Positions 1 to 46,341 of a stretch of DNA of 46,847 nucleotides are shown one piece after another. The stretch's first letter is position 1, and each line of letters opens with the position of its first letter. The position numbers and the translations under genes were made by a program. Source of the stretch: Escherichia phage vB_EcoS_AHP42; sequence record NC_024793.1; one strand, 5' to 3'. A model generated the notes under the pieces. That model had not been told where the DNA came from. It did not search any database and was given only the letters and a program-made list of their open reading frames with translations.

Positions 1-516
1 ATGTCAGAAGAGAAAAAGATTCACCAGAAGATTGGCAACTTCAAGGAGCTATACAATAAGAAGTATGGCGACATTGCCAATCTAAAGATTAACCACAGGT
101 ACACTCCTGAGCAGGTATTCGACATGGCCGTAAGGTATTTCAGCTGGGCTGAAGAGCAAGCGATTAAGGCCATTGAAACGGCGAGCTTTCAGGGTGTTGT
201 AACGGAAAACCTTGTTCATAAGCCACGAATATTTACGATAACTGGATTCCAACTTTTCTGCGGCGTTGGTCATAATGCCATCAGTAAATGGCGCTCTTCG
301 CCTGGATTTGATGAGGTGATGGAGTTTGTGGATTCGGTAATCTTTGAGCAGAAGTATCAGCTTGGCGTTAACAACATCGTCAACCCTGGACTGATTGGCA
401 AGGACTTAGGCATCGATAAGCCGCAAGAGGTTAACATCAACAATGCTTCCAATGCAGTAGTGAACGATGAGGAAGCTATGAAGGCTGCGCTTGAATCAAT
501 AGTTGATAAACTTTGA
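1..516 (+). CDS. putative terminase small subunit
   Basis: 171-aa ORF directly upstream of the large terminase; RBS AGGAGG is supplied by the window 3' end if the genome is circular. Function is from position and size only. Confidence 0.5.
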   Translation: MSEEKKIHQKIGNFKELYNKKYGDIANLKINHRYTPEQVFDMAVRYFSWAEEQAIKAIETASFQGVVTENLVHKPRIFTITGFQLFCGVGHNAISKWRSSPGFDEVMEFVDSVIFEQKYQLGVNNIVNPGLIGKDLGIDKPQEVNINNASNAVVNDEEAMKAALESIVDKL

Positions 517-531
517 TATGTTGATATAATT

Positions 532-560
532 ACCCCATTCAATAAACGAGTGGGGTTTTT
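532..560 (+). terminator. rho-independent terminator
   Basis: Hairpin ACCCCATTCAATAAACGAGTGGGGT followed by a T-run. Confidence 0.55.
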
Positions 561-561
561 T

Positions 562-1077
562 ATGTTAGATAGAGCGAAGCCTATGCCGCCTCTGGATTTT
601 CTTAGAGGAATTCTGAGTTACAATCCTGAAACGGGAAAGCTAACGTGGACATCAAAAGTAAGTAGCAAAACCATAATCGGATCCGAGGCTGGGACTTTGC
701 ACAAAGCTAGCGGTCGATATCAAGTACAGATACAAGGGAAGATATACAAGAGCTCAAGGATTGCATTTTATTTGTATTATGGCTTTGAGCCAGTTGGCGC
801 GGTTGACCACATAAATCGTGACCCATCAGACGATAGGATTTCTAATCTTAGGGATGCATCGCTTAGCCAAAACGGAATGAATAAGTCTATGATGAGCAAT
901 AATACATCTGGCTACAAAGGTGTTAGCTACTCAAAGAGAAGGAATGAGTATATTGCATATGTGAAAATAAATGGAAAAATGATGTTTGGAGGTTGGTTTA
1001 AGAAAAAAGAAGAAGCAGCAAAGGTGGCGGCATCAATGAGGGAGAGTATACATGGGGAGTTCTGCAATCATGAGTGA
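562..1077 (+). CDS. HNH endonuclease with AP2-like domain
   Basis: HNH motif DHINRDPSDDRISNLRDAS plus AP2-like GYKGVSYSKRRNEYIAYVKINGKMMFGGWF. The track start at 550 is a GTG inside the upstream terminator hairpin, so the ATG at 562 is used. Confidence 0.7.
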   Translation: MLDRAKPMPPLDFLRGILSYNPETGKLTWTSKVSSKTIIGSEAGTLHKASGRYQVQIQGKIYKSSRIAFYLYYGFEPVGAVDHINRDPSDDRISNLRDASLSQNGMNKSMMSNNTSGYKGVSYSKRRNEYIAYVKINGKMMFGGWFKKKEEAAKVAASMRESIHGEFCNHE

Positions 1078-2641
1078 AATAATTGTATGGGAAGACTTAA
1101 CATACCCAGAAAAGCTAGCTATAAAGGCACTATCAACTCATAGCTTCGAGGGTTTCTTAAGGGTGTGGTTTCAAATAAGTCAATCTGAGCGTTATATTCC
1201 TAACTGGCACCATAAGTACCTCTGTAGAATCATCGATGAGGTTATTAGCGGTCAACGCAGAGATACAATCATTAACGTAGCTCCCGGGGCCGGAAAAACC
1301 GAGATTACATCCATTCACTTCCCAGTATACTCAATGCTTAAACTAAAGAAGGTTCGCAATCTTAGCCTGTCATTCTCAGATAGCCTCGTGAAGCGTAACT
1401 CTAAACGGGTTCGTGACCTTATCAAATCGACAGAATTCCAGGAGTTGTGGCCCTGCAAGTTTGGCACATGTAAGGATGATGAGATTCAGGTTCTTGATGA
1501 TTCTGGTAAGGTTAAGTTTGAATCAATATCAAAAGCAATTGGCGGTCAGATTACAGGCGCTCGCGGTGGATATATTACAGATAACTATAGCGGCTGTTTG
1601 ATGCTTGATGATGTAGACAAAGCGGATGATATGTTCAGCAAAGTCAGGCGAGAGGCCGTGCACACTCTTCTCAAAAACACCATTCGCTCACGTAGGGCGA
1701 GTAGCGTTAAAGGTAAAGCTACGCCAATTCTGTCAATTCAGCAAAGGCTTCATACTCAGGATTCAACGTGGTTCATGACTTCTGGTGGTATGGGTATCGA
1801 CTTTGATGTAGTGAAGATACCGGCGCTGGTCACTGAAGAATATGTGAATGAACTCCCTGACTGGATTCGTGAGCAGTTCGAGAAGGACGTGCTTTCATCC
1901 GAGTACGTCGAGCGAGATGGTGTTAAGTATTACAGCTACTTCCCGCAGAAGGAATCTGTGCATGACTTGATGGCAATGTGGGACTCAGATCCGTACACAT
2001 TCCTAAGCCAGTACCAACAATCTCCAGTAGCTCTGGGTGGAAACCTGATCAACGTAGATTGGTTTGCTCGCCTCGATGAGAATAACAGGCCGCCAGTCAA
2101 GTATGACTACCGTTTCATTACGGCTGATACTGCCATGACCACTAAGAGTTATAGCGACTACTCAGTATTCCAGCTATGGGGGCGCAAAGATAACAGGCTT
2201 TATCTTCTGGATATGGTAAGGGGTAAATGGGAAGCACCTGAACTTGAGCAAACTCTTCTGGACTTTGAGGGTAAGCATAGAGCAGCTAGTAAGACAGATG
2301 GTATATTGCGCAAGGTTATTATCGAGAAGAAAGCGTCTGGAATAGGACTTATCCAGTCGGCGGGTCGGGTAATGCGAACTCCTATCGAGCCTTTCGTTCC
2401 AGATACAGATAAGTTAACCAGGGTGATGAGCGCACTGCCACAGATTAAAGCTGGTAACGTAGTTCTGCCTGACTCTGCGCCATGGCTTACCTCGCTATTA
2501 ACCGAGTTCTCGGCGTTCACTGCTGACGATTCTCATCCCCATGATGACATTGTGGATACGACAACAATGGCCATCAACTGTGAATTGAACTTGAGTGACG
2601 ATCCGAGAGCCCGCTTAATGAGGCTAGCTGGCGTTAAGTAA
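1052..2641 (+). CDS. terminase large subunit
   Basis: 529 aa with ATPase P-loop-like VAPGAGKTE and a C-terminal nuclease-like region; followed by a terminator. Start may be 1070, where ATGA overlaps the HNH stop. Confidence 0.85.
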   Translation: MGSSAIMSEIIVWEDLTYPEKLAIKALSTHSFEGFLRVWFQISQSERYIPNWHHKYLCRIIDEVISGQRRDTIINVAPGAGKTEITSIHFPVYSMLKLKKVRNLSLSFSDSLVKRNSKRVRDLIKSTEFQELWPCKFGTCKDDEIQVLDDSGKVKFESISKAIGGQITGARGGYITDNYSGCLMLDDVDKADDMFSKVRREAVHTLLKNTIRSRRASSVKGKATPILSIQQRLHTQDSTWFMTSGGMGIDFDVVKIPALVTEEYVNELPDWIREQFEKDVLSSEYVERDGVKYYSYFPQKESVHDLMAMWDSDPYTFLSQYQQSPVALGGNLINVDWFARLDENNRPPVKYDYRFITADTAMTTKSYSDYSVFQLWGRKDNRLYLLDMVRGKWEAPELEQTLLDFEGKHRAASKTDGILRKVIIEKKASGIGLIQSAGRVMRTPIEPFVPDTDKLTRVMSALPQIKAGNVVLPDSAPWLTSLLTEFSAFTADDSHPHDDIVDTTTMAINCELNLSDDPRARLMRLAGVK

Positions 2642-2653
2642 TCATGATAAACT

Positions 2654-2677
2654 GCCCCTTACTCAGGGGCTTTTTTA
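2654..2677 (+). terminator. rho-independent terminator
   Basis: GCCCCTT-ACTC-AGGGGC followed by TTTTTT. Confidence 0.7.
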
Positions 2678-2690
2678 TTGGAGAAATTAC

Positions 2691-3965
2691 ATGGTAAAAG
2701 CAGACAGCTACGCAAACATCTTTCTTAGCGGGAGTGATGGTAGTGAGGTTTACGGAAAGTTTGGCAGCCTTGGCCTAACAGCGCCAGCGCAGCTTGAGCA
2801 ACTTTATGTCAGCAGCGCTCTGGTTCGTCGAATTATTGATATCGTTCCAGAGGTCGCACTTGGCGCAGGCTTTAGTATTGAAGGTATCGACGACGAAGGT
2901 GCTTTCTGGTCGCGATGGGATGATTTAGGCCTTTCAGATAACGTAATCGACGCACTAGCCTGGGCGAGACTATACGGTGGCGCTGCTGTAGTGGCAATTG
3001 TGAAGGATGGAAGGGCGCTAACCAGCCCGGTTCGTGAAGGTGCGGAACTTGAAACAGTTCGCGTATACGACCGTCAGCAAATTAAGGTCCAGACTCGCGA
3101 GGAGAATCCACGTAACGCGCGTTTTGGTAAGCCATTAACTTACCGCATCACGCCAAACGGGTCGGCAACGTTCTACGATGTGCACTATACACGCTGTCAC
3201 ATCATTGATGGCGAGCGAGTACCTAACAACCTACGTCGTAATAACGATGGCTGGGGCGCAAGCGTACTAACTGGTGACTTAATTGACGCGATTGACGACT
3301 ATCAGAACTGTGAGCGACTGGCTACTCAGTTACTTCGTCGTAAACAGCAGGCGGTGTGGAAAGCAAAAGGCCTTGCTGACTTATGTGATGATTCAGATGG
3401 ATTTGGAGCAGCTCGTTTACGTCTGGCTCAGGTGGATAATAACAGTGGCGTTGGTCAGGCTATCGGGATTGACGCGGATAGTGAAGAGTACAACGTTCTC
3501 AACTCAGATATTGGCGGTATTGATACATTTCTGAGTCAGAAGTTCGATCGAATCGTTGCTCTGAGCGGTATTCATGAGATTATCCTTAAGGGTAAGAATG
3601 TTGGTGGTGTGTCAGCAAGCCAGAACACTGCTCTAGAGACTTTCTACGGTTATGTTGACCGTAAGCGCAAGGCTGAATTATTGCCTCTGCTTGAGTTCCT
3701 GCTGCCGTTCATCGTAACCGAGCAAGAGTGGTCAGTAGAATTTAACCCTCTATCGCAGGTTAGTGACAAGGATAAATCTGAGATTCTTGAGAAGAACGTC
3801 AATTCAGTTGCCGCATTGATTGCAGCTGGAATCATTGACGCAGACGAAGCAAGAGATACGTTGCGCGCAATTTCAACTGAGGTTAAGATTGGCGAAGGCT
3901 CAATTCAAACGGAGGTTGTAATTAATGAATCAGAAGACCCGCTGGATGTATCCGCAAATAATTGA
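2691..3965 (+). CDS. portal protein
   Basis: 424 aa directly after the large terminase; size and order are typical of a siphovirus portal. Confidence 0.75.
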   Translation: MVKADSYANIFLSGSDGSEVYGKFGSLGLTAPAQLEQLYVSSALVRRIIDIVPEVALGAGFSIEGIDDEGAFWSRWDDLGLSDNVIDALAWARLYGGAAVVAIVKDGRALTSPVREGAELETVRVYDRQQIKVQTREENPRNARFGKPLTYRITPNGSATFYDVHYTRCHIIDGERVPNNLRRNNDGWGASVLTGDLIDAIDDYQNCERLATQLLRRKQQAVWKAKGLADLCDDSDGFGAARLRLAQVDNNSGVGQAIGIDADSEEYNVLNSDIGGIDTFLSQKFDRIVALSGIHEIILKGKNVGGVSASQNTALETFYGYVDRKRKAELLPLLEFLLPFIVTEQEWSVEFNPLSQVSDKDKSEILEKNVNSVAALIAAGIIDADEARDTLRAISTEVKIGEGSIQTEVVINESEDPLDVSANN

Positions 3966-5802: not shown

Positions 5803-6297
5803 ATGGCATTTCGTCAAGCAGCATTAGCGGGTATGGTATCTGATACCTCTCTTTACAATATCGATGGCGCGTGCGTTCTAGGTGGCACCGATCAGGTGCA
5901 GGTTGGTCAGGCAGTTGGTGTTAGCGAAGTTGAAGTTACTGGAACTAGCTCATCTGGTGCAGGTCATAAAACTGTAGTTGGTTCTGGCATTACGACCGCT
6001 AACGTTTATGGTGTTGCTGTTCGCTCGCATTATGAAGCTGTTGATGGCTTCTATCGACCGCAAGAGGCAATTAACGTAATGACGGCTGGTAGAATCTGGA
6101 TGAAAACCACACTGTCAGCAGCGCCTGCATTCGGAACTGCAATCACTCTTGATGCGACTGGAATTGTTGTTTCTAGCGGCGCTGTTGAGCCAGCTGGTTG
6201 GACTTTCGCAGGTGGCTTCATTGCTGGCACTGCGGTGCAGGGTCAGCCAGAACCTTATGATGGCGCACTGATTGAAGTTCAGGTTAAGCAGAAATAA
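5803..6297 (+). CDS. putative head decoration or capsid-associated protein
   Basis: 164 aa, Gly/Ala/Val/Thr-rich, coupled to the scaffold gene stop and followed by a strong terminator. Confidence 0.4.
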   Translation: MAFRQAALAGMVSDTSLYNIDGACVLGGTDQVQVGQAVGVSEVEVTGTSSSGAGHKTVVGSGITTANVYGVAVRSHYEAVDGFYRPQEAINVMTAGRIWMKTTLSAAPAFGTAITLDATGIVVSSGAVEPAGWTFAGGFIAGTAVQGQPEPYDGALIEVQVKQK

Positions 6298-22223: not shown

Positions 22224-22468
22224 TATTTCCACTCCTTTGAGCCGTGATCTGCAACTGAGCCGCCGTAGCCTCCGCCAACCTTTGACTCAATGCCAGCATA
22301 ACGAATATCAACCTCTCCAGCTGCAACAATAACACCACCTTTCCACTTAGCTACGCAAACATCACCCGCCTGAGTCGCACACCATCCGTCAGGGCGCGGA
22401 CCAGAAGAACAACCTACCGTCATGATTACTGCTGCTGCGATGATTGCTGATTTGATGAAGTTAGTCAT
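22223..22468 (-). CDS. small lipoprotein, Cor-like superinfection exclusion candidate
   Basis: 81 aa with lipoprotein signal [22 protein letters not shown]; first gene of a minus-strand unit driven by a palindrome-associated promoter; next to tail-tip genes as cor is in T1/phi80-like phages. Confidence 0.5.
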
Positions 22469-22508
22469 TTTGTATTCCTTAGTAAGTATGTTTCGTTTCG
22501 ATGGAGTA

Positions 22509-22553
22509 ACTATAGCAAAGGCTTCTGCTGGAGTCTTTAGCAAATCGTGCTAT
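22509..22553 (-). promoter_or_regulatory. dyad-associated promoter (minus strand) for the Cor-like operon
   Basis: Minus strand: TAGCAC-gat-TTGCTA, 22 nt, TGcTATAGT, then TCCATCGAAACGAAAC leader. Confidence 0.55.
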
Positions 22554-22650
22554 TTGATATACGCGTAACCGATGTAACTCGATGTATACAATCTCATACG
22601 CGGAAAATTGTATACGCTTTTTACGCGAAGATACGCATTATTTACACTAT

Positions 22651-22730
22651 AGAATCCTTATATAATAAGGGTTTAGAGTAATTATTATTATTACTATATT
22701 TGTTTGTATATAGTGTAACTACTCTCTATA
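22651..22730. repeat. AT-rich repeat block A, homologous to 42346..42440
   Basis: TCCTTATATAATAAGGGTTTAGAGTAATTATTATTATTACTATAT...TGTATATAGTGTA; preceded by four ATACGC repeats at 22558..22636. Confidence 0.6.
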
Positions 22731-23016
22731 GCTATGTTGGTGTGTTTTTCTAAAAGACTATGTTTGATTTCCTGTTAAGGAGGAAATGCATATAGATATA
22801 GATAGGGTGCAAAAGTGGTGGATACATTGGTTACAAGAGTTACACTCAGTATCCATGCGGCGTACAGAGTCGCAAGACGTATTCAGGTGCGTTTTACGTA
22901 GATATACAGATAGCACGAATAATCAAAACTGATGCTTCCTGATTGGTTATAGTGCACTCACCGGCAGCAGTGGTGCTGCTTTTGATGCAAAAAAAACTGC
23001 ACCACAAAATCCGGGA

Positions 23017-23766
23017 GTGAAAATAATTCAACCCCAAAAACTAGAGATGATAGATATGAATCTGATTAATATTGATGAAAACGTAACCATGAGCAGCCTT
23101 GAGATTGCTGAATTGACCGGGAAGCGTCACGATAACGTAGTAAGGGATACTAGAGAAATGCTGAATGATAATGAGATATGCTCAGGATTTAGCCAATCTC
23201 ACTCCTCAAATTTGAGGAGTGAAATTCAAAATGAATCTCGCGGCTCAAATGTGGACCGCCAGATTAAACACCCATTTGAATCTGAGTACAAAAACTCAAG
23301 AGGCCAAACTCAGCCATGCTTCAACTTACCATATCGTGAAACCATGATTTTGATGGTTGGTTACAACAGAAAGGTAGCCGCAAAGATTGTTGACCGCTGG
23401 CTACACCTTGAGCTGGAAAACAAGCTCCTTAAAGAGCACATGAAGAAGATGGTTTCACTTGATGAGGTTAAGGTTTACAAAGTTGAGACGGCATCAGCAA
23501 AGGCTGCACAGCACAGAGCTGAGGATAACTATTACGCAATTGAGAAGTTCATGTTTAAGAACATGGATAAGTGCGAAAATCCTGCAGAACTTGATGAGCA
23601 ATACTTCGATGTTAAATTCGAGTCAAATCGTTACCATGACTCTCAAGAGTTGGTTTACAAGTACCAGGCTCAGCTTGAGGTTGCTTGCGAGAAGTTAAAG
23701 GCTAAAGATGATCTGATTGCCAATCTGGTGCATAAAGGCGAACCGCTTAAGCTTGGTAAAAAGTAA
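23017..23766 (+). CDS. Rha-family phage regulatory protein
   Basis: N-terminal TMSSLEIAELTGKRHDNVVRDTREML and LPYRETMILMVGYNRKVAAKIVDRW resemble the Rha domain. True start may be an internal ATG at 23047 or 23056. Confidence 0.65.
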   Translation: MKIIQPQKLEMIDMNLINIDENVTMSSLEIAELTGKRHDNVVRDTREMLNDNEICSGFSQSHSSNLRSEIQNESRGSNVDRQIKHPFESEYKNSRGQTQPCFNLPYRETMILMVGYNRKVAAKIVDRWLHLELENKLLKEHMKKMVSLDEVKVYKVETASAKAAQHRAEDNYYAIEKFMFKNMDKCENPAELDEQYFDVKFESNRYHDSQELVYKYQAQLEVACEKLKAKDDLIANLVHKGEPLKLGKK

Positions 23767-24116: not shown

Positions 24117-25085
24117 ATGAGCTTCAAGGTTTACACTAGCGACGAGTTAACCAACGAAGCCTACCACAAGGAGTCAGACCATGTGTCTGGCTCTGGTCTG
24201 GCTCACATCTTCTCAACTTGCCCCGCTGCTTATAAGTTTGCAGAGCATGATGATAGCAATAAGGCGTTAAAGTTCGGTACATTAGCCCACACGGTTATTC
24301 TTGAAAACTATGTATTCGATGCGACTTACTATCGCCAGCCAGCGCAAGAAGAGTTTGAGGATCTGATTACTAGCAAGACTGCTTTGGCAACTCGGTTGAA
24401 GTCGATGGGTATTGCTGGAACATCTGGTAAGGATTATCCAGAATTAATGGAGATTCTGGCGCTGAGCGGTGAATCACTTAACGTATGGTGGGATATTCAG
24501 CGCTCTAGCGAGGTTAAAGCGAACGGTCGCGAGATTGTATCAGCTAAAGACTTTGACACAGTACATGCGATGCGAGAGGTGCTGTGCGGCATTCCTGCAT
24601 ACAATGCGATAGTGAACAGTAAAACCGCTCAGCGAGAGTTATCAATCTTCGGTGAGATTAACGAGTGCGGCGTTAAGGTTCGTCTTGACCATGTCGATGT
24701 CGTTGATGATGTAGTTTATATCCGTGACTACAAGACGACTAGCGACGCATCTCCATCTGGATTTGGGAGATTGGCCTTCAAGCATGGTTACTTGCTAAAA
24801 ATGGCGCTTCAGCATGATTTGTTTGTTCGCGCCTTTAATGAGAAGCGTCGAGTTGTTGTTCAGCTTCTTTGCCAGGAAAAGAAAAGCCCATTCCTTCCAA
24901 TGTGCTACACGATAACAAAAGAGCACTTAAAGGTTGGTAGATTGCAATACATGAGCGCCCTATCCACATACAAGCAATGCAAGAAACTTGATATTTGGCC
25001 TGGTTACGGATTTGGCGAAACAGAGATGGAACTGCAAGTTCCTGAGTATGAGATGAAGAAGTACGAAGATAGCACGAATAGCTAA
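24117..25085 (+). CDS. putative PD-(D/E)XK recombination exonuclease
   Basis: 322 aa with a D...D-x-K-like core (DHVDVVDDVVYIRDYKTT); immediately upstream of the Erf-like and SSB genes. Confidence 0.55.
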   Translation: MSFKVYTSDELTNEAYHKESDHVSGSGLAHIFSTCPAAYKFAEHDDSNKALKFGTLAHTVILENYVFDATYYRQPAQEEFEDLITSKTALATRLKSMGIAGTSGKDYPELMEILALSGESLNVWWDIQRSSEVKANGREIVSAKDFDTVHAMREVLCGIPAYNAIVNSKTAQRELSIFGEINECGVKVRLDHVDVVDDVVYIRDYKTTSDASPSGFGRLAFKHGYLLKMALQHDLFVRAFNEKRRVVVQLLCQEKKSPFLPMCYTITKEHLKVGRLQYMSALSTYKQCKKLDIWPGYGFGETEMELQVPEYEMKKYEDSTNS

Positions 25086-25789: not shown

Positions 25790-25836
25790 ACTAAACGGGG
25801 CTTCGGCCCCAAAATCAAACGAGAAGAGAATATAAA

Positions 25837-26259
25837 ATGCATACTTTAACAGGCGTAATTCGTAAGGCTCCTTTCACTAAAGATGGTCAGAACGCCAAGG
25901 GTAACTGGAAGATGTACGCTATCGAAATGAGCGAATCTTATAAAACACGAGATGGAGAGCGTAAGTATAGTAATTATCGAGCTACCTTCTTTGCTAGCGA
26001 GGCGCAAATTAGCTGGTATGACGAAGCATTTCAGGAAGGAAAAGTTATCTCTGTGAGCGGCGATTCATTAGCGGTTAATGAGCGCGAACATAATGGCAAG
26101 ACATATATTACGCTTGAGTTGCAGAATCCTCGATTGATGTTTAGTCAGCGAGGAGGTGAATCAGAACAGCAGCAGCAGCGACAACAAGCTCAACAGCAAC
26201 AGAGACAGCAGCCGCAGCAACAAAGCCGATTTAGTGATGAAGATGATATTCCGTTTTAA
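25837..26259 (+). CDS. ssb: single-stranded DNA-binding protein
   Basis: 140 aa with OB-fold-like N-terminus, Gln-rich linker and the canonical acidic tail DEDDIPF. Confidence 0.85.
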   Translation: MHTLTGVIRKAPFTKDGQNAKGNWKMYAIEMSESYKTRDGERKYSNYRATFFASEAQISWYDEAFQEGKVISVSGDSLAVNEREHNGKTYITLELQNPRLMFSQRGGESEQQQQRQQAQQQQRQQPQQQSRFSDEDDIPF

Positions 26260-26267
26260 TGCAAAAG

Positions 26268-26293
26268 ATAAAGCCCCTTTCGGGGCTTTTTTA
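26268..26293. terminator. bidirectional terminator between SSB and the tailspike gene
   Basis: AAGCCCC-TTTCG-GGGCTTTTTT with an A-run on the other side. Confidence 0.75.
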
Positions 26294-29086: not shown

Positions 29087-30010
29087 CTATGAATGCTTAT
29101 CTATCAGATCTTGCGGGTTATATAACCTTCTTTCAAGCCCCATCTTGAAATTGCCACCTTTAGGTATTACGACTTTTAGACCTCTATCATCAGCAACATA
29201 AAGCGACTCCTTTTCATCAGCTAAGCAAGCTATCCTGCACTCTTTATTCCTGAGTTCATAAGCAACCATTTCTAAGTTGTGGTGAGTTAGGCAGTCGTAA
29301 GTTGTCCTTTTTGTGCATGCCGATACATGTAGTGCGTTAATCCAGCCAACAGTGAGGTAGATAGCTCCATCACTACATTTACTTACCGGAACAACCGAGC
29401 CGCGAGTGTAGTCTTTTGCGAGATATGACTCATTACCCTCTTCATCTATAAACTTTACGTTACAAGGCTCATCTGATAAACCATCCTCGTAAACCATAAA
29501 GCATTGCTCGGCTATAATTTCTTCTCCAGACCCCTTTATTCCTATTTTGTATTCCCGTTCAGTAATAATTGCTTCAAATCTCGTAAGCTGTGTCATTTCT
29601 ACAGACTTGGTGCGAGATATTACCTTCTCGATTGATTCAATGGATGCCTGAGCGCCAAAGTTATATCTCTGAACTCGGCTCGCTGCTTTGTTTGCCTTCA
29701 CTATGATTTCGACGGGAGTCAAATTAAGCCAGTCGCCAAGTAAATTTATAGCTTCCGCAAATCTAAGGCCGGAACATTTCATAACCCATCCTATTCCTGA
29801 GTCACTGCCGCACTTAGAGCAAACTGCGGCCCCATTACCTTTTTCGCTTCCTATTTCGTCTGTAAACCTGAATCTGTCAGTACCAAAGCAATAAGGGCAC
29901 GGCCCGTGCTTCTTGCTAAGGTGTCTATCATTCCAACCAAGCTCCTTTGCATAAAATGATTTCCACAATCCAGCCATTTTAGGTATTACTTCATTCTTGT
30001 CGTAATTCAT
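29087..30010 (-). CDS. putative DNA primase (zinc ribbon + TOPRIM-like)
   Basis: Zinc ribbon CPYCFG...CSKCG near the N-terminus and an acidic TOPRIM-like region; followed by a minus-strand terminator. Confidence 0.5.
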   Translation of the reverse strand: MNYDKNEVIPKMAGLWKSFYAKELGWNDRHLSKKHGPCPYCFGTDRFRFTDEIGSEKGNGAAVCSKCGSDSGIGWVMKCSGLRFAEAINLLGDWLNLTPVEIIVKANKAASRVQRYNFGAQASIESIEKVISRTKSVEMTQLTRFEAIITEREYKIGIKGSGEEIIAEQCFMVYEDGLSDEPCNVKFIDEEGNESYLAKDYTRGSVVPVSKCSDGAIYLTVGWINALHVSACTKRTTYDCLTHHNLEMVAYELRNKECRIACLADEKESLYVADDRGLKVVIPKGGNFKMGLERRLYNPQDLIDKHS

Positions 30011-30062: not shown

Positions 30063-30536
30063 TTACTCTTTAGCTTTTCGTGCTTCTTCTCTTTCTTTCT
30101 TAACCTTTCGCCATGATTTACGCTGCGGCTTGGTTGCTAACTCAGCTTCTGTAACAACTCGAAGCATCTGACGCTTCTTGCATCGCAGTGTTAGAGGCTT
30201 GCCGTTACCGTCGAACTGTAAATCAGGTCGGCAGAATGTAGCCCTGAACCCCTCGCCAGTTCGCTTATATCGATTATGCGCAAGCTGTGCGCCGCGAGCT
30301 GAAATCATTCCCCGCTTACACCATTCTTCTACAGCCTGGCGCGTAACCTTTAGCTGCTTAGCTAGATTGGCCTTGCTGCCGTAGAAGTCCAATACAATCT
30401 CAAGGCGCGCCCTTAATCCTGCTCTCACTTCATCCTTTAGTACATAGTAACCTGATGGACGCTTACGCGGCTTCTTGTCTTCTGTGCGAATTGTTCCGTT
30501 GTTACCATTAAGAGTACGCTTGTCAATTGAATCCAT
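30063..30536 (-). CDS. basic HTH DNA-binding protein (candidate transcription regulator)
   Basis: 157 aa, very basic, with HTH-like SKANLAKQLKVTRQAVEEWCKRGMIS; divergent from the helicase gene, with the dyad element between the two starts. Confidence 0.5.
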   Translation of the reverse strand: MDSIDKRTLNGNNGTIRTEDKKPRKRPSGYYVLKDEVRAGLRARLEIVLDFYGSKANLAKQLKVTRQAVEEWCKRGMISARGAQLAHNRYKRTGEGFRATFCRPDLQFDGNGKPLTLRCKKRQMLRVVTEAELATKPQRKSWRKVKKEREEARKAKE

Positions 30537-38348: not shown

Positions 38349-39938
38349 TTACCCCAACAGCCGTGGATTGATATATACCTTGTCACCAATCAGGCAGGTA
38401 TAGTTTTTATCATCAAGCATCGGCAATAAGTGGTCTTTAATTTTAGCCATAACACCAGCCTGTGACTCGAAAGGTCGAACCTTACGCGCAGCTTCATAAA
38501 GTGAACGCAAACCCACAACTCCTTTACTGTTCTTGCCTTGCTTGATAAGGATATCAATTAACTTGTTCATCTCAGCGTTATCGCCAGCATGACCAGCTGC
38601 GTTAGCTGAGGATAAGTAAGTCTTACTAAGTTCTCCAAACATCAACAAAGCCTCTTGCATGGTTTCCAGTTCAATCTCCCTGGACTTCTGCGGACTACCG
38701 CCATTTGGGTTAAACCAGTTACGGATAGTGTGAAGAACTGCAGCAATGCGAATTACCTGTTTATCCATTTTACCTAACGCGCCGCGCAGCATTGTGTGTG
38801 AATACTTACCGCCATCTGCAAGGTGTGGCTCCATTTCCTGTCGAGCACGGTTAAGGTGCTTCATTGCTGAGTTACTAATAGTCAACTTAACATCTTGCTC
38901 ACTCATAATTTCATGAACAAGACGGAAGTAATCAGCCTTCAACGCTCCGTCAATCGGCTCATATGTTGACTCGCCATTATCATCGACGAAAACACGCTCA
39001 CCAAGGAATGACTTTTCACGCACAAGCAAGAAACGTTCGGATACACCAATACCGCGAGCACCAGCATTCATGATTGCGACTATTGTTTCATCCTGCGCAA
39101 TTACAGAAATACACCCCATAGCAATAAAGCTCATGTTGTTCTCTGCGTTCGCACGCGCGATAGATACGTTACCAGCATCCCAGGCCTTAAGCACCAGTTC
39201 GCTGTTTGTTTTCTTTGTTCCATCACCATAGGTCATGCCCAGCAGTGAGTTGACGCTCGTCGCCTCATCCGAGATGACAGCGAAGCTACCCTGACGATGG
39301 TTAATGCGTGCCAGACCTTCGGGAGTAGTATCAGATACAGGGAATACGATGTCGCAAAGTTTCTCGAGCTTATCTTCCAGCTCCTCCTTCTCCTCAAACA
39401 AACCAGCCATCTCAGAAGGCGACTTCTCCTGCTTCATTTCTTTAGCCAGAGCCGACAGCTTGGCCATAATCTTTTTACGGTCACGCTTACGGAGCTCGTT
39501 TAGTCGCTCAGTCTCTGCAATCATTGGAGCCAGAGACAGCGAGTTAATGGCAGATTTACCAGTTGATGGAGGCTGGCTGGTCACTACATACAGTGATGTT
39601 GGTTGTTGAGTTCCGTGATACTCAACCGTAAAGCGACCTAACATAGCTGCCGAGATGCAACCAAGGAAGTGCATATAAGCAGATGATTCAGGAAACTGAA
39701 CAGAACGAGCAATGTTGCTTGATAGTTTGCCAACTACATCATAGTCGTTACCAAGCGAGATAACAGGATACTTGTCGCCAGTAGAATCAATCTCAACCGG
39801 AGCTTTCCAGAATGATGCGCTCTGGCGATAACCGTTCGCATTAATAGCAACACGTAAAGGAGGTAATCCATCCTGAGCGGCAACAGCCATTACTTGTTCA
39901 ACAGTCAATTTGTCATCATTAAAATCAAACATTATCAT
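38349..39938 (-). CDS. large conserved hypothetical protein (possible replication-associated; full-length paralog of 43251..43811)
   Basis: 529 aa; its N-terminal about 40 aa and C-terminal about 55 aa are paralogous to the 186-aa protein at 43251..43811. Confidence 0.55.
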   Translation of the reverse strand: MIMFDFNDDKLTVEQVMAVAAQDGLPPLRVAINANGYRQSASFWKAPVEIDSTGDKYPVISLGNDYDVVGKLSSNIARSVQFPESSAYMHFLGCISAAMLGRFTVEYHGTQQPTSLYVVTSQPPSTGKSAINSLSLAPMIAETERLNELRKRDRKKIMAKLSALAKEMKQEKSPSEMAGLFEEKEELEDKLEKLCDIVFPVSDTTPEGLARINHRQGSFAVISDEATSVNSLLGMTYGDGTKKTNSELVLKAWDAGNVSIARANAENNMSFIAMGCISVIAQDETIVAIMNAGARGIGVSERFLLVREKSFLGERVFVDDNGESTYEPIDGALKADYFRLVHEIMSEQDVKLTISNSAMKHLNRARQEMEPHLADGGKYSHTMLRGALGKMDKQVIRIAAVLHTIRNWFNPNGGSPQKSREIELETMQEALLMFGELSKTYLSSANAAGHAGDNAEMNKLIDILIKQGKNSKGVVGLRSLYEAARKVRPFESQAGVMAKIKDHLLPMLDDKNYTCLIGDKVYINPRLLG

Positions 39939-40190: not shown

Positions 40191-40235
40191 AATATATCAA
40201 TTTTTGTTGTTAAGTTCTTTAGCAAAAAGTGCTAT
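40191..40235 (-). promoter_or_regulatory. dyad-associated promoter (minus strand)
   Basis: Minus strand: TAGCAC-ttt-TTGCTA, 22 nt, TATATT, then TCTTCATCGAAACGAAA; drives 39973..40152 and downstream genes. Confidence 0.55.
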
Positions 40236-40639: not shown

Positions 40640-40989
40640 TTGTAAGCCGCCTCAAACTTATACATCCCATAACCCACATCAAAGCCAACTTCTTCATCAC
40701 GCGTCAACTGCCAGCCCTCGCCGTCTTCATCATAAATATACCCAGCGTTACGACCAAGTGATGAAGTCATTGATACCTGGTAACGCTTACCCTTACTGAA
40801 ACTCTTCTTGAGTGGTGACTTGTGGTTCACGAAAGTGCAAAGCAAAGTCTTGGTCTTGACGTAACGACCCCGGCCAGTGAGATTTTGCCATTTACCATGA
40901 ATCTTGATTTGCTCAATACCATCTTTAACGCGAGCTTTAAACATATTGTTATCTGAGCTGATCCAGTTTTTAGTGATAGTGGTAGCCAT
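40636..40989 (-). CDS. hypothetical protein
   Basis: 117 aa, coupled to the downstream Cys-rich gene by overlap. Confidence 0.45.
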   Translation of the reverse strand: MATTITKNWISSDNNMFKARVKDGIEQIKIHGKWQNLTGRGRYVKTKTLLCTFVNHKSPLKKSFSKGKRYQVSMTSSLGRNAGYIYDEDGEGWQLTRDEEVGFDVGYGMYKFEAAYK

Positions 40990-41014
40990 TACTATTTTCC
41001 TTTTTGGTTTGTTA

Positions 41015-41317
41015 TTAGTTAGCGTTATGACGTTCGATATAGTCGCGGATTGTTTCGCCTACGCTTTTAGCGGCACCAAAAGTGCCCTTTGCGTGGCGTG
41101 AATCGCGGTACGTCTGGAAGAATTTACGAGCGATGTTTGCGAACATTGAACCAGTCACGCGAGCATCACCGAAATTTGTTTCGATAGCGTTGCTAATGCC
41201 ATCCTTGAACTCATTTTCAGTCATGAACATCTCTGCCATGCCAGCAGTCTCGAAAAGGTTAGCTAATTCATTCATGTTGTTATGGTCTTCGGCTGTAAAC
41301 AGGTTCATGTTAATCAT
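41015..41317 (-). CDS. hypothetical protein
   Basis: 100 aa downstream of a minus-strand palindrome-associated promoter. Confidence 0.45.
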   Translation of the reverse strand: MINMNLFTAEDHNNMNELANLFETAGMAEMFMTENEFKDGISNAIETNFGDARVTGSMFANIARKFFQTYRDSRHAKGTFGAAKSVGETIRDYIERHNAN

Positions 41318-41351
41318 CTTCGTGATTCCTTAGTTTCGTTTCGATGAGATG

Positions 41352-41395
41352 AATATACAATAAAAGCCCCGAAGGGCTTTAGCAATTCGTGCTAT
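41352..41395 (-). promoter_or_regulatory. dyad-associated promoter (minus strand) with embedded hairpin
   Basis: Minus strand: TAGCAC-gaa-TTGCTA, a spacer containing AGCCC-TTCG-GGGCT, then TGtATATT and CATCTCATCGAAACGAAAC. Confidence 0.5.
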
Positions 41396-41544
41396 TTCTT
41401 TGCTGCTTTTGCAATTGCCTTCTGGACGATGTTGAAGCTCTCAATCAAATCTTCTTTGAAGTAGTCACCAACAGGCCAACCCTTACCGCTGTACTTGGCT
41501 ATGGTTTCTAGATCGTAATAGTTCAAGTCAGATGGCTTTAGCAT
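41392..41544 (-). CDS. hypothetical small protein (50 aa)
   Basis: Not in the track; RBS GAGGT; start abuts the upstream gene stop (TAAATG). Confidence 0.35.
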   Translation of the reverse strand: MLKPSDLNYYDLETIAKYSGKGWPVGDYFKEDLIESFNIVQKAIAKAAKK

Positions 41545-41784
41545 TTACTTAACCTCATCAAAAGTTGCAACACCAGGGATAAACATTCCAACCTTCCAGC
41601 CAGAGATAGCAATCCATCCAGAATCGTGCTTGTGCGGTCGCTCAGAGCCATTAATCACCCACTCATTCGGGATTGTTTTACCATTAATGATTAGAGGCTC
41701 AGCGTCGTATACGGAGCCTTTTATGAATGGTGTTAATACATTCTTATCCGTGCTTTGGATAACGTTGGTGCAGCGAATCTTCAT
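41545..41784 (-). CDS. hypothetical protein
   Basis: 79 aa, overlaps the upstream gene by 4 nt. Confidence 0.45.
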   Translation of the reverse strand: MKIRCTNVIQSTDKNVLTPFIKGSVYDAEPLIINGKTIPNEWVINGSERPHKHDSGWIAISGWKVGMFIPGVATFDEVK

Positions 41785-41999
41785 GCTACCACCTCAATTT
41801 CTTCATTACTAACAACAAACTTTTCACCTTGAAAGATTGCAAGAGTACCATCAACATATACATGATCCTTTAAACTCATCATGTAGAAGCCTTCAATCTC
41901 GTAAACTTCCACCTCCTCACCAATCTGATAGCCAAGTTCGGCAAGGCTCATTGAATCTTCGTCGTACCTAATTTCGTTGTTGATAATAATCGCTTTCAT
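41781..41999 (-). CDS. hypothetical protein
   Basis: 72 aa, first gene after the minus-strand promoter at 42028..42072; RBS GAGGAG. Confidence 0.45.
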   Translation of the reverse strand: MKAIIINNEIRYDEDSMSLAELGYQIGEEVEVYEIEGFYMMSLKDHVYVDGTLAIFQGEKFVVSNEEIEVVA

Positions 42000-42027
42000 G
42001 TTTCTTCTCCTCTCTGTTGATTAGCAA

Positions 42028-42072
42028 ACTATAGCCAGTCATGGTGGATTTGTCTTTAGCAAAAAGTGCTAT
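42028..42072 (-). promoter_or_regulatory. dyad-associated promoter (minus strand)
   Basis: Minus strand: TAGCAC-ttt-TTGCTA, 22 nt, TATAGT, then RBS GAGGAG for 41781..41999. Confidence 0.55.
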
Positions 42073-42345
42073 TCGTCAGATTTATGGATTGTTGCAGGCA
42101 TTGCGATGATTAGCATGACTATTACACATAAAGCAATATTTCATCGAGTGCAACAGGTTTATTGATTGTTGCCAGTTTGGCAATGATGGATGGATGGATT
42201 GAATGAAAGGAGGTCTGGATCAAATAGTTGGTTGGTTTTATCGCTCGCGGAGAGACTTCTTTTATATACGCGTAGTCCGCTGTCTACCGATTGTCGACCG
42301 TATCCACATTTACAATTTATACGCCTTGATATAATCCATATACAC

Positions 42346-42440
42346 TAAAATATCCTTATATATAAAGGACTTAGACTATTATTATTATTATATATAGTAT
42401 TATGTATATATAGCGTATCATCTGTACGCCACTATATAGG
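42346..42440. repeat. AT-rich repeat block B, homologous to 22651..22730
   Basis: TCCTTATATATAAAGGACTTAGACTATTATTATTATTATATAT...TGTATATATAGCGTA; flanked by TATACGC repeats, a (GATG)x3 run and the palindrome TTCCTACAcTGTAGGAA. Confidence 0.6.
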
Positions 42441-42630
42441 TTGGTTTGCTTAAATTTCTATTTTTATTCCTACACTGTAGGAATTGTACTACCTTGTAGG
42501 AAAATATAGGAGGATATAGCTAGAACCACCTCATCTATATGTAGACGCACGTAGACGCCTGTACACACCCAGCAACGATGCGGCATGCAGGGCAAAAAGC
42601 GTATCAATTTTAAAATAAACAAAAAATACA

Positions 42631-42659
42631 TTTATATACACGTAAATCTTTGCTATAGT
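42631..42659 (+). promoter_or_regulatory. putative early promoter without dyad (extended -10 TGcTATAGT, AT-rich UP-like region)
   Basis: TTTATA, 17 bp, TGC-TATAGT, followed by the conserved TTTCATCGAAACGAGG leader; AT-rich upstream; first promoter after the long noncoding region. Confidence 0.45.
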
Positions 42660-42708
42660 CATTTCATCGAAACGAGGCAACAAACAACAATCAACGAGAG
42701 GAATTATC

Positions 42709-43251
42709 ATGAGCAAAACGACCTTAGGTGAAGTAATTCGATTCATGGCTAAAAAGGCACTCCAGTCAGAAGATAAGGAGTTCAAGGTTCCAGTTCGAGA
42801 TATTTACCGACAAATTAGAGGTCATGATTACCCGGAAATGGAGACTGATGATAAAACCGGGGATATTATCAACCTTGGAGAGCGGAAGTTGAGTGAGTTA
42901 AAGAACTCATACATTCATAATACATTGTCACGAATGAGAGAGTTGCGTGAGGCTAAGTATATCGCCCGTTATCAATTCATCTGGATTGATGCGGATGGTG
43001 AAGATACCACGCCCCGCCAGTATGATGGCGATGGTGCTGATAAATACCTGCTAATCCATCTCACCGAGGGGGTTAAGGAGCCAAAAGCAAAACAAAGAGA
43101 GAAAGAAGAAAAGGAGCGGGCTGTTATTGAGAAGTTCAAATCTCGCTTGCTTAAGTTATCACCTAACGTACTGGATTTTGAAGGTGATGAGCTGACTGGC
43201 GCAGTTAAGGCTATCCGCATGTATCAAGAGATGATCAAGGAGTTTAACTAA
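42709..43251 (+). CDS. hypothetical early protein
   Basis: 180 aa, first gene after a long AT-rich regulatory region; promoter is extended -10 TGcTATAGT without the dyad. Confidence 0.5.
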   Translation: MSKTTLGEVIRFMAKKALQSEDKEFKVPVRDIYRQIRGHDYPEMETDDKTGDIINLGERKLSELKNSYIHNTLSRMRELREAKYIARYQFIWIDADGEDTTPRQYDGDGADKYLLIHLTEGVKEPKAKQREKEEKERAVIEKFKSRLLKLSPNVLDFEGDELTGAVKAIRMYQEMIKEFN

Positions 43252-43811
43252 TGTTTGATTTCGACGAAGATAAGTTAACTGATGACCAGGTGATGGAAGT
43301 CGCCAGGCAAGATAACCTGCCGCCACTTCGTGTGGCAATCAATACTAATGGATACCGCCAATCATTCAATTTCTGGCCCAGCGCCGAAGAGATGCTGTGC
43401 GTCAAGTTGAGCTACAAATACGGCGTAGTAGTGAGCAGGATTAGCCGCCAGGGCTGGAATGGAGTGGTTGGCATTCGATCTCTATACGAGGCAATCCGAA
43501 AGGTCCAGCCATTCGTCGGGCGCGAAGGGATTATGCATGACCTGACAAATAACATCATCCCAGAACTACAGGAGGCGGGAATTGTTTGCCTCATTGGCGA
43601 TAAGATTTATGTTCATCCGGCCCTGGTTGGGATGGATAAGGACGACGTGCAAAACTGGTGCAGCCAGTACCGATCCGACGCGCCACGCTCACACTACGTG
43701 CCACCGCAAACAACAATCCATGGCTATGATGCCGATGAGGTGGAGAAGGCCATACAGTTCTACCGGAAAGCGAAAGCTCTCCTGAATGGTGAATATAGCA
43801 CAAATTGCTAA
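43251..43811 (+). CDS. hypothetical protein, minimised paralog of the 529-aa protein
   Basis: N-terminus MFDFDEDKLTDDQVMEVARQDNLPPLRVAINTNGYRQS and C-terminal block GVVGIRSLYEAIRKVQPF...CLIGDKIYVHPALVG match the termini of 38349..39938; the central domain is absent. Confidence 0.55.
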   Translation: MFDFDEDKLTDDQVMEVARQDNLPPLRVAINTNGYRQSFNFWPSAEEMLCVKLSYKYGVVVSRISRQGWNGVVGIRSLYEAIRKVQPFVGREGIMHDLTNNIIPELQEAGIVCLIGDKIYVHPALVGMDKDDVQNWCSQYRSDAPRSHYVPPQTTIHGYDADEVEKAIQFYRKAKALLNGEYSTNC

Positions 43812-46265: not shown

Positions 46266-46341
46266 GTTCTGCTGGCGTAACAGGATAACGCAGAGACCTC
46301 CTAAGTCTCAGTTGCTGGTTCGAGTCCAGCGCAGAACGCCA
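46266..46341 (+). tRNA. tRNA-Arg (anticodon CCT, reads AGG)
   Basis: Hand-folded 76-nt cloverleaf: 7-bp acceptor stem GTTCTGC/GCAGAAC, U8, D-stem GCGT/ACGC with GG in the D-loop, anticodon stem GAGAC/GTCTC, loop CTCCTAA, T-stem GCTGG/CCAGC, T-loop TTCGAGT, discriminator G and encoded CCA. Confidence 0.85.

Follow-up and report, generated by a model that had tools for sequence, protein, structure and literature searches.

The replication origins closest in design to the locus described here, a 709-bp strand-switch gap (gap B, 42000-42708) in the genome of Escherichia phage vB_EcoS_AHP42 (NC_024793.1; the whole stretch of 46,847 nucleotides is called the window below), are those in which iterons lie beside AT-rich DNA and are recognized by a helicase-type initiator, for example, the ori of the staphylococcal pathogenicity islands (SaPIs) with its Rep helicase and the lambda ori with the O protein. 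In such origins the repeat sequence matches the self-encoded initiator, and a genome whose most readily melting DNA is bracketed by short, lineage-specific repeats shows the classical mark of an initiator-dependent origin. The satellite phage P4 has two separated cis sites, ori and crr, with common octamer repeats bound by the alpha primase-helicase, and the primary origin of T7 and oriF and oriG of T4 consist of a promoter followed by an AT-rich unwinding element, with no flanking iteron arrays. AHP42 has a complete T1-like genome (Rogunavirus, Drexlerviridae; 46,847 bp). T1 belongs to the original set of seven T phages, and to our knowledge its replication origin has never been located; our literature searches found no experimental T1 origin. 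The genome paper of the relative SU57 found no origin, and that of TLS found no origin and no iterons in the genome (PMC11447400).

Comparison of gap B with the equivalent gaps of T1, TLS, Rtp, Rogue1, SU57, AKS96, and Kilian demonstrated that it is not a single element but a mosaic of promoters, a repeat cluster specific to this locus, and a module of ~350 bp (42255-42610) that has a second copy in gap A (22544-23016, 473 bp), the other strand-switch gap of the genome (Table 1). Gap B is best explained as the control region at the genome end of a T1-like phage, with four cis-acting parts. The first would be a leftward promoter with a family 21-nt upstream repeat; the second, a cluster of GATTGTTGC...GCAATGAT units with a purine run, at which terminase would start headful packaging rightward; the third, the module; and the fourth, a strong rightward early promoter with an UP-like tract and an extended -10. 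From the letters of these genomes we lean, with moderate confidence, towards the view that the two module copies are paired replication origins, one of them next to a packaging (pac) site and the early promoters.

Table 1. Positions of the parts of gap B, of the second module copy, and of genes for candidate binding proteins in the window
Feature	Position	Strand	Basis or remark
Leftward promoter	42028..42074	-	Promoter scan; homologous to 22508-22554
Repeat cluster, probable pac region	42075..42254	+	Repeats; locus B only
Left repeat array	42255..42331	+	Colinear with 22553-22636
AT-rich core, candidate DNA unwinding element	42332..42415 (84 bp)	.	GC 0.16; melting scan
Right half of module	42413..42610	+	Repeats
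Rightward early promoter and leader	42611..42708	+	Promoter scan
Module copy A	22553..22890	+	Upstream of Rha-like gene and exonuclease/Erf/SSB genes
DUF3987 helicase (529 aa), candidate initiator	38349..39938	-	Pfam DUF3987, E 9e-43
Cro/YdaS-like helix-turn-helix (HTH) protein (157 aa), alternative candidate binder	30063..30536	-	PHROG 'transcriptional regulator'
Stand-alone winged-helix paralog, second gene of rightward operon	43251..43811	+	PHROG 7327, which also matches helicase residues 441-528

A first-pass annotation of this sequence had proposed that gap B shares a block with the other strand-switch region, and the shared block proved longer than it had put it: 42260-42486 is colinear with 22553-22788 (64% identity over 241 columns, E 8e-17), and further A/B matches flank it (42027-42073 with 22508-22554, and 42565-42604 with 22842-22882). 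The left repeat array contains the box TATATACGCGTA, the palindrome TACGCGTA at 42267-42274, ATACGC at 42319-42324, and phased units GTAGTC, GTCTAC, and GTCGAC at 42272, 42282, and 42293; the two TATACGC repeats of the first-pass annotation are present, at 42265-42271 and 42318-42324, a small offset from the 42266 and 42319 given there. The AT-rich core contains CCTTATATATAAAGG, TTAGAC, (ATT)4, TATATAG, and TGTATATATAG. In the right half, inverted TACGC sites occur at 42413-42418 and 42599-42604, and GTACGC at 42424-42429. Here we also recovered the palindrome noticed in the first pass (TTCCTACAcTGTAGGAA, at 42467-42483 where about 42463-42480 had been given), its half copy (CTACCTTGTAGGAAAA, 42489-42504), with a second TGTAGGAA at 42495-42502, and the tandem repeats, which form a 10-bp array, GTAGACGC / GTAGACGC / GTACACAC, over 42541-42568, with units at 42541-42548 and 42551-42558 and a degenerate third at 42561-42568.

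The TACGC-type repeats of the window lie on the + strand left of the core and mostly on the - strand right of it, and they are concentrated in the two gaps: together gaps A and B make up 2.1% of the genome and hold 8 of its 18 copies of ATACGC (p 1.4e-9) and 13 of its 80 copies of TACGC (p 1.3e-8). All three genome copies of TGTAGGAA are within 42467-42502. In a nearest-neighbour scan of 80-bp duplexes, 42332-42411 ranked as the least stable in the genome, with a dG of -77.2 (mean -107.6, standard deviation 5.5), and the paralogous core in gap A, 22637-22716, came second. Locally enriched short repeats and an adjacent AT-rich element of the unwinding type, two of the features by which iteron origins are recognized, are both found here.

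The pairing of the two elements, also suggested by the first-pass annotation, is family-wide. In the window, AKS96, Rtp, TLS, and T1, a profile of the core matched at exactly two places per genome, each time on the + strand, i.e., two module copies in the same orientation, and in the Webervirus Kilian two copies were found by eye inspection, not by the profile; the gap A region matched 144 phage records at 231 places. In these six genomes, which represent five lineages, the two module cores are the two least stable 80-bp windows, with melting minima 4.8-6.3 standard deviations above the mean and well clear of the third-ranked window. The sequence of the flanking repeats is lineage-specific and is common to both copies within a genome. 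The window and AKS96 have ATACGC/TACGCGT repeats, and Rtp has TACGC plus TCCGCGG, with all six genome copies of TCCGCGG in the modules (p 3e-11). In T1 the repeat is TGTAACA, again with 6 of 6 genome copies in the two modules (p 8e-11); in TLS it is GTGAACA/TGGAACA, with half of the eight genome copies of GTGAACA in the modules; and in Kilian it is GTAAGAT, with 12 of 16 in the two modules (p 1.5e-18). Compared with one another, the A and B cores within a genome show the same degree of similarity as each shows to the core at the corresponding position in other genera.

Conservation among relatives, which the first-pass annotation had taken as bearing on its reading, differs between parts of the module. 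Within the gap, close relatives agree best over the core (96% of columns invariant in the Jk06 group, against 84-88% of columns in the left array among the four Jk06-group phages), and it can be aligned across subfamilies. The right tandem array, on the other hand, differs among close relatives, with GATACGG / GTACGCC in e4/1c and Rogue1 and ATAACG/ATAACA units in AKS96. The B module of AKS96 has diverged as a whole, in that blastn keeps only 42201-42274 and the core is ~68% identical to that of the window, with the left TACGC sites kept. Over 41500-43300 the window is 98.5% identical to Escherichia phage Jk06 (Drexlerviridae, Rogunavirus).

Separately, we observed that the modules of Kilian (25793-26287 and 40806-41467) carry a very regular repeat, GGTAAGAT/ATCTTACC, and because of this regularity Kilian is a cleaner system than AHP42 in which to test protein binding. 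In the Webervirus genome the recombination block is inverted, and the module is still upstream of the exonuclease gene. No comparable module was seen in a distant phage contig with a DUF3987 helicase (36% identity), of which 20 kb was covered. A scan of IMG/VR with TTAGN{2,5}ATTATTATTATTA yielded for the most part AT-rich contigs that are unrelated, and was uninformative, and searches of IMG/VR for the locus by single proteins returned 1 and 8 close relatives only.

In the mechanism that we propose, a phage-encoded initiator would bind the TACGC-type repeats on both sides of the core, the 84-bp AT-rich core would melt, and an MCM-like helicase and a primase would load on it, after which a host polymerase would copy the DNA; we take the polymerase to be the host's because there is no polymerase gene in the annotation tables of T1 or TLS. 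The best candidate for the initiator is the DUF3987 helicase, which would act by way of the winged helix at its C-terminus, and the alternative candidate is the Cro-like HTH protein. The copy at 22553-22890 would then make either two origins or an origin and an auxiliary site. DUF3987 proteins are superfamily 6 (SF6), MCM-related replicative helicases that have a winged helix-turn-helix (wHTH) at the C-terminus (PMC4889955), and helicase activity has been shown for one member of the family (PMC11724360). The AF2 model of the AHP42 protein (pLDDT 88) has an MCM-like fold, with MCM proteins as top Foldseek matches (E 2.5e-6), and a predicted wHTH topology at residues 453-523. Its gene is 2-4 kb from locus B, in the operon driven from gap B.

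The gene for the HTH protein lies between the primase and superfamily 2 (SF2) helicase genes, and all members examined encode it. Its matches to Pfam P22_Cro and YdaS (E 3e-5) are below the curated cut-offs, and its putative recognition helix differs by repeat group (TRQAVEEW in the window, SNQTVQGW in T1, NLKTVWGW in TLS). The window and AKS96, which both keep TACGC sites, have helicase, primase, and HTH proteins that are 99.8-100% identical. Between the window and Rtp, which belongs to the same TACGC family, the helicase is 91% and the HTH protein 85% identical and the primase only 42%. We therefore rejected the primase (307 aa, Zn ribbon, 29087-30010 (-), its gene 8 kb from the helicase gene) as the specificity factor, since it diverges where the repeats are of the same family. 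As the neighbouring HTH protein and the helicase are close to those of Rtp and the primase is not, the primase gene appears to be an exchanged cassette. The stand-alone winged-helix paralog is only 50% identical in AKS96, against 99.8% for the helicases, and could compete with the helicase at DNA or regulate it there. We also considered the product of the first rightward gene (42709-43251; DUF7174, AHP42 gp63; AF2 pLDDT 77) as a binding partner of the right array, and rejected it, in that it has no fold match in the PDB and its co-variation with the array is indistinguishable from linkage.

Set beside the known systems, the module resembles the SaPI/lambda-type origins, with which it shares short repeats beside 80-100 bp of AT-rich DNA, a repeat that differs between related elements, and a helicase with a C-terminal DNA-binding domain. 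It differs from them in having two copies per genome, neither of which is within or directly beside the helicase gene, in its loosely phased repeats of 5-8 bp, and in the SF6/MCM-related DUF3987 type of the helicase; that these copies are bound and fire as origins is what we infer. The resemblance to P4 ori and crr is that two distant cis regions carry the same short repeat. In addition, annotation likens the T1-type primase to the alpha protein of the P4 family, and the TLS repeat GTTCAC/GTGAACA resembles the P4 octamer. However, alpha joins primase, SF3 helicase, and a C-terminal repeat-binding domain in one protein, whereas primase and helicase (529 aa) are separate proteins here and the helicase is not of superfamily 3 (SF3), so that we do not class the module as a member of the P4 system; nor does primase type track repeat type, as the comparison with Rtp showed. 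With the transcription-activated origins of T7 and T4 the module shares an AT-rich, meltable segment with promoter-like hexamers in or beside it, but it has flanking iteron arrays, and no transcription start is known inside the core.

The repeat cluster of ~190 bp to the left of the module is the second main component of gap B. It contains AGATTTAT at 42078-42085, a 34-nt direct repeat (42077-42110 and 42154-42187) with GATTGTTGC in each copy, an inverted repeat, TTGCCA-gtt-TGGCAA, at 42169-42183, and a GATG-rich purine run, GATGGATGGATGGATTGAATGAAAGGAGG, at 42185-42213. The GATG run of the first-pass annotation is within this purine run, as (GATG)x3 plus GATT at 42185-42200 (Tandem Repeats Finder, period 4, 3.8 copies). 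The cluster has two GATTGTTGC-n-GCAATGAT copies 77 bp apart, and both genome copies of GATTGTTGC are in gap B, at 42087 and 42164. Gap A is without the cluster, the 21-nt repeat directly adjoining the TACGCGTA box there. Rogue1, AKS96, SU57, Rtp, and T1 have comparable cluster units, and Kilian and TLS have units of a GATTG type that are looser.

The sequence records of T1, TLS, Rtp, Rogue1, and SU57 start 137-470 bp to the right of the leftward gene, at or near the cluster where aligned. For example, the T1 record, which is linear with a terminal repeat annotated at 1..2800, has its position 1 within a GATTGTTGC unit, 162 bp to the right of the last leftward gene, and the TLS record starts 195 bp to the right of the last leftward gene of TLS; the TLS pac was mapped by a submolar pac-HindIII fragment, with HindIII at 5876 and pac ~5,882 bp away. 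In SU57 the record begins 239 bp inside the gap, with PhageTerm support for the genome end, and those of Rtp and Rogue1 start in the same cluster. The small terminase subunit of AHP42 (gene 1-516) scores 33.1 bits with Pfam GP3_package (cut-off 29.4), the P22 gp3 family. Because of these record starts and ends and of the P22 gp3-family terminase, we read 42075-42254 as the start of rightward headful packaging, i.e., as probably the pac region of AHP42, where the packaging cut would fall.

The likeness to the headful pac sites of P22 and Sf6 is in the gp3-family small terminase and in the packaging series of T1 and TLS, which start in the equivalent region. AGATTTAT is identical to 8 nt of the P22 pac core. 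However, P22 pac sits inside the small terminase gene, whereas this cluster is intergenic, 4.1 kb upstream of that gene, and only 8 contiguous bases of the 22-bp P22 pac, and 11 of its 22 positions in all, are matched here. By location and by sequence the cluster falls outside the definition of P22 pac, though as a packaging start it would act like a pac site. Terminase more probably recognizes the repeated GATTGTTGC...GCAATGAT units.

Several points weigh against our reading of gap B. No experiment on any T1-like phage places an origin at the module. The TACGC repeats of the window are shorter and less regular than classical 17-22-bp iterons, and promoter-like hexamers occur on both strands of the AT-rich core, so that a transcriptional role fits the core sequence too. 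DnaA boxes show no enrichment (16 genome matches against 12.6 expected, with one 8-of-9 box, 42300-42308), and since they do not cluster at the module it is not oriC-like. The C-terminus of the helicase and the HTH protein both track overall divergence, and co-variation with the repeats does not separate these two candidates. As to packaging, the P22-like 8-mer AGATTTAT occurs 8 times in the genome, so that this motif alone does not define pac; several of the records were probably given their start by analogy to T1 or Rtp, not by measurement; and the ends of AHP42 are described only as circularly permuted (PMC4070988).

The first-pass annotation had left the choice between origin-like and regulatory elements open, and that joint reading is supported. 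The origin-like side of it is favoured by the repeats that flank an AT-rich core, by the cores being the two least stable segments, and by the lineage-specific repeats common to both copies; the two functions are inseparable by sequence alone. The main rival to origins, which we regard as unlikely although an operator or enhancer role for the divergent operons would suit much of this evidence, is that the module is a transcriptional control region, its repeats being operators for a regulator such as the Cro-like HTH protein (30063-30536), which would switch the divergent early operons at both loci; on this reading the conserved AT-rich core would serve as promoter or UP-element DNA, or host nucleoid proteins would bind there. 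Both modules do lie between divergent promoters, the right array is ~65-90 bp upstream of the rightward -35, a typical position for an activator, a Cro-like HTH protein is found in all members examined, and the authors of the TLS genome paper suspect unexplained regulatory repeats in the family (PMC11447400). The left arrays, in contrast, are >200 bp from the leftward -10 and therefore overlap neither promoter. Both cores contain minus-strand promoter-like hexamers (TATACA-16/18-AATAAT), but promoter-like matches in the region are no commoner than in shuffled sequence. What speaks for origins over operators is the two most meltable segments of six genomes being flanked by lineage-specific repeats, which is the usual signature of an origin and not of an operator.

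A far less probable alternative is that the module acts through transcription or RNA, with a transcript from a core promoter priming or activating replication, as at the origins of T7 and T4, or with a small regulatory RNA. There are promoter-like sites in the cores, and gap A of AKS96 is annotated with a promoter, a 48-codon open reading frame (ORF), and a terminator downstream of the core; a terminator-like hairpin is present at 22959-22978 in the window, but there is no terminator-like site in region B. The hairpin at 42455-42515 folds better than shuffled sequence (z -3.7 and -4.6), while the core does not (z 0.75 and -0.25), and neither the CCTTATATATAAAGG nor the TTCCTACA/TGTAGGAA hairpin is preserved in that form in Rtp or SU57, TGTAGGAA being a direct repeat in SU57. 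No Rfam match was found in 41500-43300 or 22300-23200 at E up to 1. Least probable of all, if by little, is that the paired blocks are recombination substrates, i.e., exonuclease/Erf hot spots or boundaries of module exchange to which no initiator binds: although in every genome examined, also in Kilian with its inverted block, the recombination genes follow region A directly, the AHP42/AKS96 exchange has a breakpoint in the gap near 42240, and an A/B core similarity equal to that across genera is compatible with gene conversion, general homologous recombination requires no specific site, and the lineage-specific flanking repeats and the extreme melting minimum would be left unexplained.

The divergent promoters described in the first pass were found again as promoter-like sites in our promoter scan (42056->42028 on the - strand and 42631-42659 on the + strand). 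The leftward promoter has a -10, TATAGT, at 42033-42028 and a -35-like AAGACA at 42056-42051, with a spacer of 17, and is followed by an operon of small genes and the helicase gene (41999 down to 38009). Within this promoter lies an upstream repeat of the T1 family, ATAGCACTTTTTGCTAAA, at 42072-42055 (-); the pattern ATAGCACNNNTTGNTAAA has 21 genome matches at <=3 mismatches, 10 of them exact, against 7.2 expected. A 21-nt intergenic repeat, aaATAGCACnnnTTGnTAAAA, has been described for TLS, with its function unknown there, as oriented with transcription and ~76 nt upstream of the start codon (PMC11447400). In gap B the repeat is an exact match (42072-42055), likewise oriented with transcription and 56-75 nt from the ATG at 41999, and it covers only ~20 bp of the element described here.

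As a separate observation, the genome has ~14 copies of the family repeat ATAGCACnnnTTGnTAAA, each oriented with local transcription, at 22536-22553 (-), at 25069, 30549, 32945, 33630, 34316, and 36160 (+), at 40218, 40416, 41378, and 42055 (-), and at 43795 and 44918 (+). For the three copies that were examined, in gaps A and B (22536-, 22910+, and 42055-), the repeat lies ~21-22 nt upstream of a TATAGT -10, and because of this spacing it looks like the upstream element of a phage-specific promoter class.

The rightward early promoter is predicted to be strong. It has an A/T-rich UP-like tract (42607-42630), a -35, TTTATA, at 42631-42636, and an extended -10, TGcTATAGT, at 42651-42659, with a spacer of 17, followed by the leader CATCGAAACGA, a ribosome-binding site, and the ATG at 42709. 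The only exact matches of TGCTATAGT in the genome are at 22509 (-) and 42651 (+), and the 28 nt at 42648-42675 (+), from CTTTGCTATAGT to CATCGAAACGA, i.e., the -10 and the first ~20 transcribed bases, share 89% identity with the leftward promoter and leader of gap A (22493-22520 (-)). This identity between the gaps, and the retention of the same -10/leader sequence in Rogue1 and e4/1c, suggest a conserved 5' leader.

The gene order of the genome is terminase, head, and tail genes, two leftward membrane-protein genes, and gap A; then a Rha-like gene, exonuclease/Erf/SSB genes, a tail fibre gene, and the genes for the primase, the HTH protein, an SF2 helicase, and lysis; and finally the leftward operon with the DUF3987 helicase, gap B, and rightward small early genes. 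That gap B is the largest noncoding stretch, as the first pass had it, is consistent with the ORF list, in which the 473-bp gap A is next, though gaps were not formally tabulated. Neither the Jk06 nor the e4/1c annotation has a gene in the equivalent of gap B. A 52-aa ORF at 42190-42348 was rejected as a gene, as e4/1c breaks it by a 2-nt indel, and so were gp01 and gp02, annotated in the gap of Rogue1, as their ORF lengths vary between relatives. GC skew tracks the direction of transcription and is uninformative on replication.

We also observed that AHP42 and AKS96 differ by a mosaic exchange (~42240-43811, against AKS96 41685-43176) in which a different allele covers two thirds of gap B, on its right side, and the first and second early genes, with its breakpoint in the gap just right of the pac-like cluster. 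The exchanged early proteins are 38% and 50% identical; the other genes compared are 98.7-100% identical. In gap A, a 48-codon ORF at 22788-22934 (+) lies downstream of the core, before the terminator-like hairpin, and may represent a short transcript or micro-protein; the two have no counterpart in gap B, and their AKS96 equivalents are annotated as gp26 and a terminator. Elsewhere, a tRNA-Arg gene (anticodon CCT) is located at 46266-46341 (+) among the small early genes, and an ORF at 550-1077 (+) lies between the small and large terminase genes, with an AKS96 equivalent annotated as an HNH endonuclease.

The kind of element that the module would represent is well known, and the paired module is a precise, family-wide, testable candidate for the origin of T1-like phages, and the best candidate yet for this family. 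Tentatively, and with somewhat less than an even chance of being right, we propose more broadly that T1-like phages replicate from two paralogous origins, each made of iterons, an unwinding element, and iterons, which would be recognized by the winged helix of an SF6 helicase, with recognition re-specified in each lineage at both copies and with one origin fused to pac and the first early promoter, so that replication, packaging, and early transcription would all begin in a 700-bp hub at the end of the genome. The same helicase is carried by >900 sequenced T1-like relatives, and the module points to the DUF3987/MCM-like helicase as a possible origin-recognizing initiator in viruses that infect bacteria. 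The positions of pac, ori, and the early promoter would be useful for engineering and rebooting Drexlerviridae, which are common therapy candidates and contaminants of laboratories and fermentations.

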